Below are positions 10,385 to 11,839 of a stretch of 64,000 nt of DNA, one piece after another; within the stretch, counting starts at the first letter, position 1, and each line of letters opens with the position of its first letter. The stretch lies in NCBI RefSeq assembly GCF_056712565.1, contig NZ_CM160072.1. One strand, 5' to 3'. The notes beneath the pieces were generated by a model. The model had not been told where the DNA came from. It worked only from the letters and a program-made list of their open reading frames with translations, and made no database searches. The position numbers were made by a program, and so were the translations under genes.

Positions 10385-10800
10385 AAATTTCACTCATTTG
10401 TAGGATACAGAAAGCAATACAAAGCCCGCATAAACAATTAGCATTTATGTTGTGTAATATTTTTTTGCCAGGCTTATAGTGTCTTTGGCAACCGGTAGCT
10501 GTATTTTATATTTTTTTGTATAAGGTCTCCTGTGAAAAATCTCTTTTCACATTATTTAAATAAACAGAGAACCAGATTAAATACCTGAGTATAAAATCTC
10601 TTCTGATGTTTAATTGATTTGAATGTTCGTAAGCTATATCACTTACTCAATCCATTTTACCCAGAGTCATAAAATAGAATGTCTGTTGATCTCATTTTCA
10701 TATTCCTTTCAGACTGAAGTGCGTTTTCATCACCCGATGAGAAAGAACTGAAGTGATGTTTGCCATAGATTGCGAGATGCCCTGTCTCATTGACTATCTT

Positions 10801-10825
10801 GGTGCACCTTTATACCTGTTATACC
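10801..10825 (-). promoter_or_regulatory. Candidate NanR operator (GGTATA repeats) in the nanC-fimB intergenic region
   Basis: Minus strand reads GGTATAACAGGTATAAAGGTGCACC, matching the remembered NanR operator repeat pattern; lies upstream of nanC. Confidence 0.5.
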
Positions 10826-11839
10826 AGATCAAAAATCACGCAATCCATACAACAAAACCAGATTTGCAATTCGTGTCACAAAATATGTCGATCTTTTTCT
10901 AAGAGGAAGATGCCATGTGAAGCCAGACGAACACTTGCGGTGGTCTTCAAAAACTAAAGATCTTAGTTTAACTATTTGTTTTATAAATAATTTGTTTAGA
11001 GTCTAAACAAGGGGAGCTTTGCAAGCTAACTCAGTGAGCTTGGTGAAAATCAGTGTTTACCCGCCATCAGGCTGAGCATAATTCTCATCATGAAATATGT
11101 TTCCTGGTTTGTGGCTTGTAACTGGTCACTTCTGAAGTCGATCTGGAGAGGCTTGTTGATGTTGGTGTTTTCAGGATGATGTTTCACTTAGTTTGTTTGC
11201 CGTATCGCCCGGCGAATGGCTGTGATTGAGGAAGGTTTAAGTCGTAGTGACCAAAGCTATATTTACCAACGAATGTAGATGAAAAAATCATCTCCTGCGT
11301 TCCCCCATATCTCCAGGATAAAAAGGAATGTAACAATCTCATGGCGTAAGCTGACGAATCAGCAGGAATAATCGCTAGGGACCTAAGAATTAGCATGATA
11401 ATAGCCACTAAGAAATTACTGCGCTCCATGAAATAGCCATTTTGTGGCAAATGGAGTTGACTAATAATGTCATATGTGAGACGGCTAGTTGAACGAATAT
11501 TAAATTTTGCTGAATTTTTTATGTTGATTTTACTTGTTACAGAACATATCACATGATATATAGATAAGATTAGTTGCATTAATGATGAGGGTTATTATTA
11601 GATTCGTATCCGATTGATAAATATATAAAGGTACATAGCATGCAAGAGCATGGCGTTTGTATGGCAACGTTATTATAATTAACAGTTGCTACTCCATTTA
11701 AGTTCACTCAGAAGAACTGGTCCACTTACGTTAGTTATTAAGCAAACGTTCGCTTTTATAAACATAATCAGGATAAAAATGTTGGATTATTGCTAACCCA
11801 GCACAGCTAGTGCGCGTCTGTAATTATAAGGGAAAAACG

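Follow-up and report, generated by a model that had tools for sequence, protein, structure and literature searches.

The region between nanC (yjhA) and fimB in E. coli K-12, with the operators O_NR, O_NC1 and O_NC2 and an IHF site, is known from the work of the Blomfield and Plumbridge laboratories (El-Labany 2003; Sohanpal 2004, 2007; Condemine 2005; McVicker 2011), and the (GGTATA)3 operator of nanA was studied in Kalivoda 2003/2013 and Horne 2021. Studies have shown that NanR and NagC activate fimB, that the inducers Neu5Ac and GlcNAc lower fimB, and that SlyA has an independent effect, through displacement of H-NS (PMC3173223). The nan operons are repressed by NanR, whose binding to DNA is weaker with Neu5Ac (PMC8012715). 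Opposite signs can also be found: NanR was described as an activator of nanCM and nanATEK and a repressor of fimB (PMC4797297), and NagC was described as repressing both divergent transcripts, fimB included (PMC3098098). These signs conflict with those of PMC3173223 and PMC8012715, and the latter two were followed in this study.

The window, the whole 64-kb stretch of DNA that was analysed, carries a spacer between nanC and fimB, for which a preliminary description had proposed a long (about 1.4 kb) intergenic region. Both flanking genes were identified as proposed, and the spacer is 1455 bp long, the published lengths being 1456-1458 bp (PMC3946193). The left edge had been placed at 10394; the locus was right, but this edge follows the nanC ORF in its form extended upstream to a GTG at 10393. 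Because RefSeq puts the nanC start at the ATG at 10384, we let the spacer begin at 10385 (Table 1). The start codon of fimB in the ORF listing of the 10200-12100 region is an ATG, and NCBIfam assigned its product to the tyrosine-type DNA invertase subfamily. In K-12, the same region is flanked by nanC, with nanM and nanS behind it, on one side and by fimB, followed by fimE and fimA, on the other. The spacer was 100% identical to that of strain 104 and 99.7% identical over 1446 bp to that of K-12 MG1655, from which it differs by four substitutions only, none of them in the mapped sites. All the published elements obtained as sequence (NagC, SlyA, H-NS, ops-like and Shine-Dalgarno) are present verbatim, and the published distances were reproduced, so that the window and K-12 share the same locus. 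Among 5426 complete E. coli genomes searched by megablast, the 1446-bp stretch was present in 5109, and at least 80% of it was retained in 5020; annotated features under the spacer were almost absent among the matching genomes. We firmly believe that this region is the already characterised E. coli nanCMS/fimB divergent control region with its NanR operator.

In the window, nanS has a complete ORF (7497-8504, minus strand, 335 codons from a TTG), and the K-12 comparison record has only a partial sialate O-acetylesterase pseudogene annotated in its place. Strain E2 has a nanC annotated with an internal stop, and strain 300081 has a nanX annotated as frameshifted, with the nanC-fimB spacer match absent altogether. 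The stop in E2 and the frameshift in 300081 show that accessory sialic-acid genes are decaying in some lineages. On the fimB side, an ISL3-family element, ISEc53, interrupts fimB just after codon ~66 in Nissle 1917 and GN04171. In ESY001, the spacer is cut short by an IS1A at the fimB promoter (window ~11576), and a deletion has removed the fim cluster as far as gntP.

The NanR repeat operator proposed for this spacer was found by the motif scan. The 20-mer GGTATAACAGGTATAAAGGT has a single exact match in the 64-kb window (10806-10825, minus strand) and no second one even when three mismatches are allowed, and the looser pattern GGTATANNNGGTATA matches only this same operator, for which 0.13 matches are expected. 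The span first given, 10801-10825, contains the operator and is slightly generous; with the third repeat the operator extends over 10803-10825. This third repeat, GGTGCA (10808 down to 10803, minus strand), matches GGTATA at four of six positions, and an ApaLI site, GTGCAC at 10802-10807, marks it; the published position of this ApaLI site is -1033, counted from the fimB ORF (PMC3911127). O_NR spans -744 to -766 relative to the fimB start site and O_NC2 ends at -470, matching the published NanR and NagC sites 760 to 470 bp upstream (PMC3173223), so the length of the region and the position of the operator fit the long-range sialic acid/GlcNAc control that had been suggested. With nanC-nanM-nanS downstream, the operator stands at the promoter of an operon for the use of sialic acid, and it is identical in K-12.

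The imperfect third repeat could speak for a functionless chance match of GGTATA repeats in AT-rich DNA. Against this, only 0.01 matches of GGTATAACAGGTATAAAGGT are expected per window in dinucleotide-preserving shuffles, the operator is invariant across strains inside a 90-bp ultra-conserved core, and about 90 representative genomes of Enterobacteriaceae carry this 20-mer as the mark of nanA-type operators. Genomic SELEX has also reported the binding of NanR to the nanC/fimB spacer in vitro (PMC5934670; PMC4797297), and both NanR binding and an operator-mutation phenotype are already in the literature. A chance match is hardly conceivable, and we read the repeats as the NanR operator. It has two perfect GGTATA direct repeats in the native spacing (3-nt and then 2-nt spacers), the lowest number for which cooperative nanomolar binding has been shown, and an oligonucleotide with (GGTATA)2 suffices for cooperative NanR binding with a KD of 25 nM, only two complexes being formed (PMC8012715). 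In the published operator alignment, nanCMS is counted as one of the three NanR operators (PMC8012715, Fig. 1 legend), so an operator can belong to this group without having a perfect third repeat. A third GGTATA repeat lets three NanR dimers bind; as this unit is GGTGCA at nanC, the stoichiometry may be two dimers rather than three. At nanA, nanC and yjhB, NanR has been reported to bind no more than 5 bp from a GATC (PMC5155068), and the neighbouring Dam site of the window lies within this distance.

In a scan for GGTATAACAGGTATAAAGGT with one genome per species, 90 loci were returned, and nearly all of them were nanA-type operators in other Enterobacteriaceae, the 20-mer being kept in many genera of this family. 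For example, one E. coli locus among them has nanA and nanR on either side. The third unit was GGTATA in 45 copies, GGTATG in 21, GGTACA in 16 and GGTGCA in 1, and this sole GGTGCA copy among the 90 from representative genomes is the E. coli nanC operator. A GATC stands one base upstream of the operator in 49 of the 90 copies. In the same one-genome-per-species set, the exact 20-mer was not found beside nanC in other Escherichia species. One of the 90 loci carries a divergent nanC allele, in a record titled E. coli strain E69; its third unit is GGTACA, whereas GGTGCA is kept in the 12 E. coli strains aligned in this study. Two labels in these searches were unexpected for the sequences that they carry: a MAG of an uncultured Bacteroides sp. 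has the nanC-fimB spacer with fimB, identical to E. coli, and a 265-bp contig of Methylobacterium mesophilicum has an E. coli-identical nanXY operator. From their sequence, both contigs look like E. coli contamination of the assemblies.

Both published NagC operator sequences were checked in the spacer and are present verbatim. Their centres are 212 bp apart, and this agrees with the distance that Sohanpal reportedly gave in 2007. Midway between them lies a segment that we take to be the candidate IHF site of that work (10969-10994), and this segment varies among strains. O_NC1 overlaps a CRP-like site, TGTGACACGAATTGCA, on the minus strand (10880 down to 10865), whose centre lies 47.5 bp upstream of the base with which the operator begins. 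When the 70 bp upstream of the operator were aligned with those of nanXY (yjhBC), 50 of 70 positions were identical without gaps, and none of 2000 shuffles scored as well; the alignment with nanA was also significant (p ~0.001). The TGTGA half-site, the GTTTTGTT block, GATCT and the operator stand in register across the nanC, nanXY and nanA modules. In the nanA (nanATEK-yhcH) module, the first 20 bp of the operator and the adjacent GATCT are the same as in nanC, and the TGTGA (CRP) half-site lies upstream at the same distance, whereas the third repeat is a perfect GGTATA and the operator is followed by the start codon after 39 nt instead of 418 nt. The nanXY module is homologous to that of nanC over ~290 bp with 64% identity, from the CRP site to about the first 180 nt of the leader. 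Its third repeat is also perfect, its gap between operator and start codon is 411 nt, and, unlike nanC, it has no divergent partner gene under long-range control.

With TATAAC in the first operator repeat as the -10 hexamer, the CRP-like site would be centred at about -61.5, the start site would be near 10811, and the operator would extend from about -14 to +9. From this homology we infer that the nanC promoter coincides with the NanR operator. A simple consensus scan gave no minus-strand sigma-70 match at the operator, and a literature search for a published nanC start site found nothing usable. Whether the 45 nt that follow the nanC operator retain traces of the 5' UTR and start codon of nanA was also considered; the signal was marginal (p ~0.02), and no such relic is claimed here.

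The conservation of the spacer was evaluated in an alignment of the window with 11 strains picked across the identity range. Variable columns made up 11% of the spacer and 3% of nanC. There were none in O_NR, its GATC and O_NC1, and one in O_NC2. The 106-bp core was found in 5074 of the 5426 complete E. coli genomes, in 4029 of them at 99% identity or more, so the motif is present in the reference strains; this frequency agrees with the reported prevalence of nanCMS of ~93% (PMC10088187). The spacer of E69 was 75% identical to that of the window overall and 79% identical over the alignable 1060 bp. Positions 10806-10892 were ~99% identical in E69, whereas their flanks were 56% (nanC side) and 60-68% (fimB side) identical, and O_NC2 formed a second conserved island. 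The nanC-proximal 400 bp were ~84-86% identical, and the central spacer was ~62% identical with indels. No spacer like that of E69 was found among the 5426 RefSeq complete genomes, the best match being 82% over 75% of the query. The segment between O_NC1 and the SlyA sites, which takes in the presumed IHF region, is hypervariable among E. coli strains, with a nucleotide diversity (pi) ~3.4-fold the value at the third codon positions of nanC; the leader and UTR on its two sides evolve at about the synonymous rate.

Table 1. Positions of the nanC-fimB features in the window, and nucleotide diversity (pi) in 12 strains
Feature	Position	Strand	Basis	pi
nanC CDS (N-acetylneuraminic acid outer-membrane channel)	9668..10384	-	ORF; identical protein WP_001295734.1 annotated in RefSeq	
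nanC third codon positions				0.018
'Promoter island' entry 4537484_311 nanC(-)/fimB(+)	about 10345-10655		PMC3661553, one of 78 islands	
nanC-fimB divergent intergenic regulatory region, 1455 bp, 36% GC	10385..11839	.	Identity to strain 104 and K-12	
nanC-proximal 418 bp				0.022
Putative nanC 5' leader, ~427 nt, AT-rich	10385..10811	-	nanA/nanXY promoter homology; 84-86% identity in E69	
Mini-ORF, 14 codons, MKMRSTDILFYDSG, speculative	10657..10701	-	Upstream AGGA; intact in 12 strains and E69	
NanR operator O_NR, GGTATAACAGGTATAAAGGTGCA	10803..10825	-	Two perfect GGTATA repeats and a degenerate third; motif scan, conservation	
O_NR-O_NC1 core	10803-10893			0.0037
Putative nanC -10 hexamer TATAAC	10818..10823	-	In first operator repeat; nanA/nanXY homology and position of CRP-like site	
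GATC (Dam site)	10827..10830	.	One base from O_NR	
NagC operator O_NC1, TGCAATTCGTGTCACAAAATATG	10865..10887	+	Exact 'fimB1' of PMC3098098 Table 1; invariant in 12 strains	
Second GATC	10890..10893	.	3 bp from O_NC1	
Central segment	10894-11374			0.0605
Candidate IHF site	10969..10994	.	Two one-mismatch IHF-consensus matches; midway between NagC sites	
NagC operator O_NC2, CATAATTCTCATCATGAAATATG	11077..11099	+	Exact 'fimB2' of PMC3098098; conserved block in E69	
131-codon ORF, judged spurious	11184..11579	-	Strain comparison	
SlyA operators O_SA2 (11375-11386) and O_SA1 (11390-11401)	11375..11401	+	Exact matches to PMC3173223; overlapped by H-NS sites	
fimB promoter and fimB UTR				0.018 each
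fimB 5' UTR, 271 nt	11569..11839	+	PMC3911127; positions confirmed in window	
fimB CDS (tyrosine-type DNA invertase of fim switch)	11840..12442	+	ORF, annotation, NCBIfam	

The gaps between operator and start codon were unusually long at nanC (10385-10802) and upstream of K-12 nanX (737-1147 of record L104). Among the 90 operator loci, no homologue of the nanC leader was found in other genera. The GAAAATGAG start context of the mini-ORF is common to the nanXY leader, and the block shared by nanC and nanXY, CTGA..GGA.TA.GAAAATGAG, reads as a ribosome-binding site with an ATG. Considering the similar gaps of 411-418 nt, the homologous first ~180 nt and this common block, we speculated that the long nanC leader may carry a control element acting after initiation, for example an upstream ORF or a site to which a protein or an sRNA binds, and we give this a small chance. 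Such an element would be undescribed so far, and what the two accessory operons under NanR, nanCMS and nanXY, have in common may go beyond the operator. Several points weaken this reading: the peptide of the mini-ORF is not conserved, with 4 of its 14 residues changed in E69, its homologue in nanXY is 43 codons long, and AT-rich DNA often contains short ORFs. Another ORF of 30 codons past the operator (10790 down to 10698) was rejected, its ATG and frame being gone in E69.

On the fimB side, the SlyA operator sequences CTAGGGACCTAA (O_SA2) and TTAGCATGATAA (O_SA1) were found verbatim at -194 to -168 from the fimB start site, matching the published -194 to -167, and the H-NS2 and H-NS3 sequences of PMC3173223 overlap both of them. 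H-NS covers the fimB promoter region from about -500 to +150 (PMC3173223). A 5' UTR of 271 nt, the target of the small RNA MicA (PMC3911127), puts the fimB start site at 11569. Of the elements described in PMC3911127, the ops-like element TGGCGTTTGTAT lies at 11651-11662 in the UTR, the Shine-Dalgarno sequence AAGGGA lies at 11828-11833 (-12 to -7), and the SphI site is also present in the spacer.

The central part and the fimB promoter are crossed on the minus strand by the 131-codon ORF of Table 1, so the stretches that had been called ORF-free are only roughly so. If this ORF were a gene, the spacer would hide a protein: it is open in the window, and an 81-aa piece of it is annotated as hypothetical protein WP_032193988.1 in one RefSeq genome, that of strain WL297. 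It is opened, however, by one of the four substitutions that separate the window from K-12, where an in-frame stop closes it; frameshifts or stops interrupt it in 5 of the 12 strains, and its middle third is in a different frame between lineages. It also overlaps the fimB promoter and the SlyA and H-NS sites and is unannotated in nearly all of ~5000 genomes. Because of these stops, frameshifts and the frame switch between lineages, we believe that the ORF is not a gene, and a coding function has next to no credibility.

AT-rich stretches had also been proposed, and this was borne out: GC drops to 27-31% at 10400-10700 and 11400-11700. The further suggestion that they encode unannotated small RNAs found no support. 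An independent small RNA gene in these stretches would agree with two in vitro binding peaks of sigma-70 holoenzyme in the spacer (PMC3946193), with a promoter-like sequence matching at 10 of 12 positions (TTGGCA-16-TATATT, 10485-10512, plus strand), and with the conservation of the nanC-proximal stretch in E69. A second promoter, TCAACA-17-TTTAAT, was predicted at 11527 down to 11499 on the minus strand, and both predicted promoters and both sigma-70 peaks fall in the two AT-rich blocks. On the other hand, Rfam gave no match at E<=1 across 9500-14200, promoter-like sites numbered 3 against 6.1 expected, and terminator-like sites 1 against 0.9 expected. Folding was not unusual compared with shuffled sequences: z was -0.38 for the putative nanC leader and -0.15 for the fimB UTR, and in a scan of both strands with 90 sliding windows of 120 nt the lowest z was -2.4. 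The stretches also coincide with the putative nanC leader and the known fimB leader, and they overlap a published promoter island (PMC3661553), whose coordinates were mapped to the window by the offset from the FITBAR coordinate of PMC3098098. Taken with this evidence, independent small RNA genes appear very improbable here. Promoter islands bind RNA polymerase and H-NS and yield little beyond abortive oligonucleotides under silencing (PMC3661553), and H-NS was flagged for the nanC-fimB spacer (PMC3946193). This stretch is among the 78 islands listed, is AT-rich and is H-NS-associated. The first AT-rich block is thus better explained by the putative nanC leader and the promoter island, and the second by the H-NS-covered fimB promoter together with the beginning of the fimB UTR. 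Elsewhere in the window, the SymR antitoxin RNA (RF01809, 95.8 bits) was found at 42131-42207 on the plus strand; no other Rfam family in the window exceeds its gathering score.

The identity, position and conservation of the sites are observed in this study, and the protein binding and regulatory outcomes in the following scheme are those of the literature. NanR, a GntR-family repressor, would bind the GGTATA repeats cooperatively as dimers, and NagC would occupy O_NC1 and O_NC2. On the nanC side, the operator probably lies on the promoter itself, as the homology with the nanA and nanXY modules suggests, and the transcript would begin with a leader of ~427 nt. NanR would repress nanC by occluding the promoter and NagC by competing with CRP; with the operator on the -10 hexamer and O_NC1 over the CRP-like site, the two proteins would turn nanCMS off. 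Towards fimB, NanR and NagC bound at these same sites would raise transcription of fimB from ~470-766 bp away. Neu5Ac would release NanR and GlcNAc-6-P would release NagC, upon which nanC would be induced and fimB lowered, with fewer cells switching type 1 fimbriae on. Nearer to fimB, SlyA would counteract H-NS at 11375-11401, and the fimB leader would be under the control of MicA.

Finding the locus intact in the window does no more than confirm that this strain has the standard circuit. This locus is a textbook case of the integration of host signals: with sialic acid and GlcNAc arising from inflammation, the recombinase of type 1 fimbriae goes down, and the sialic-acid porin goes up.
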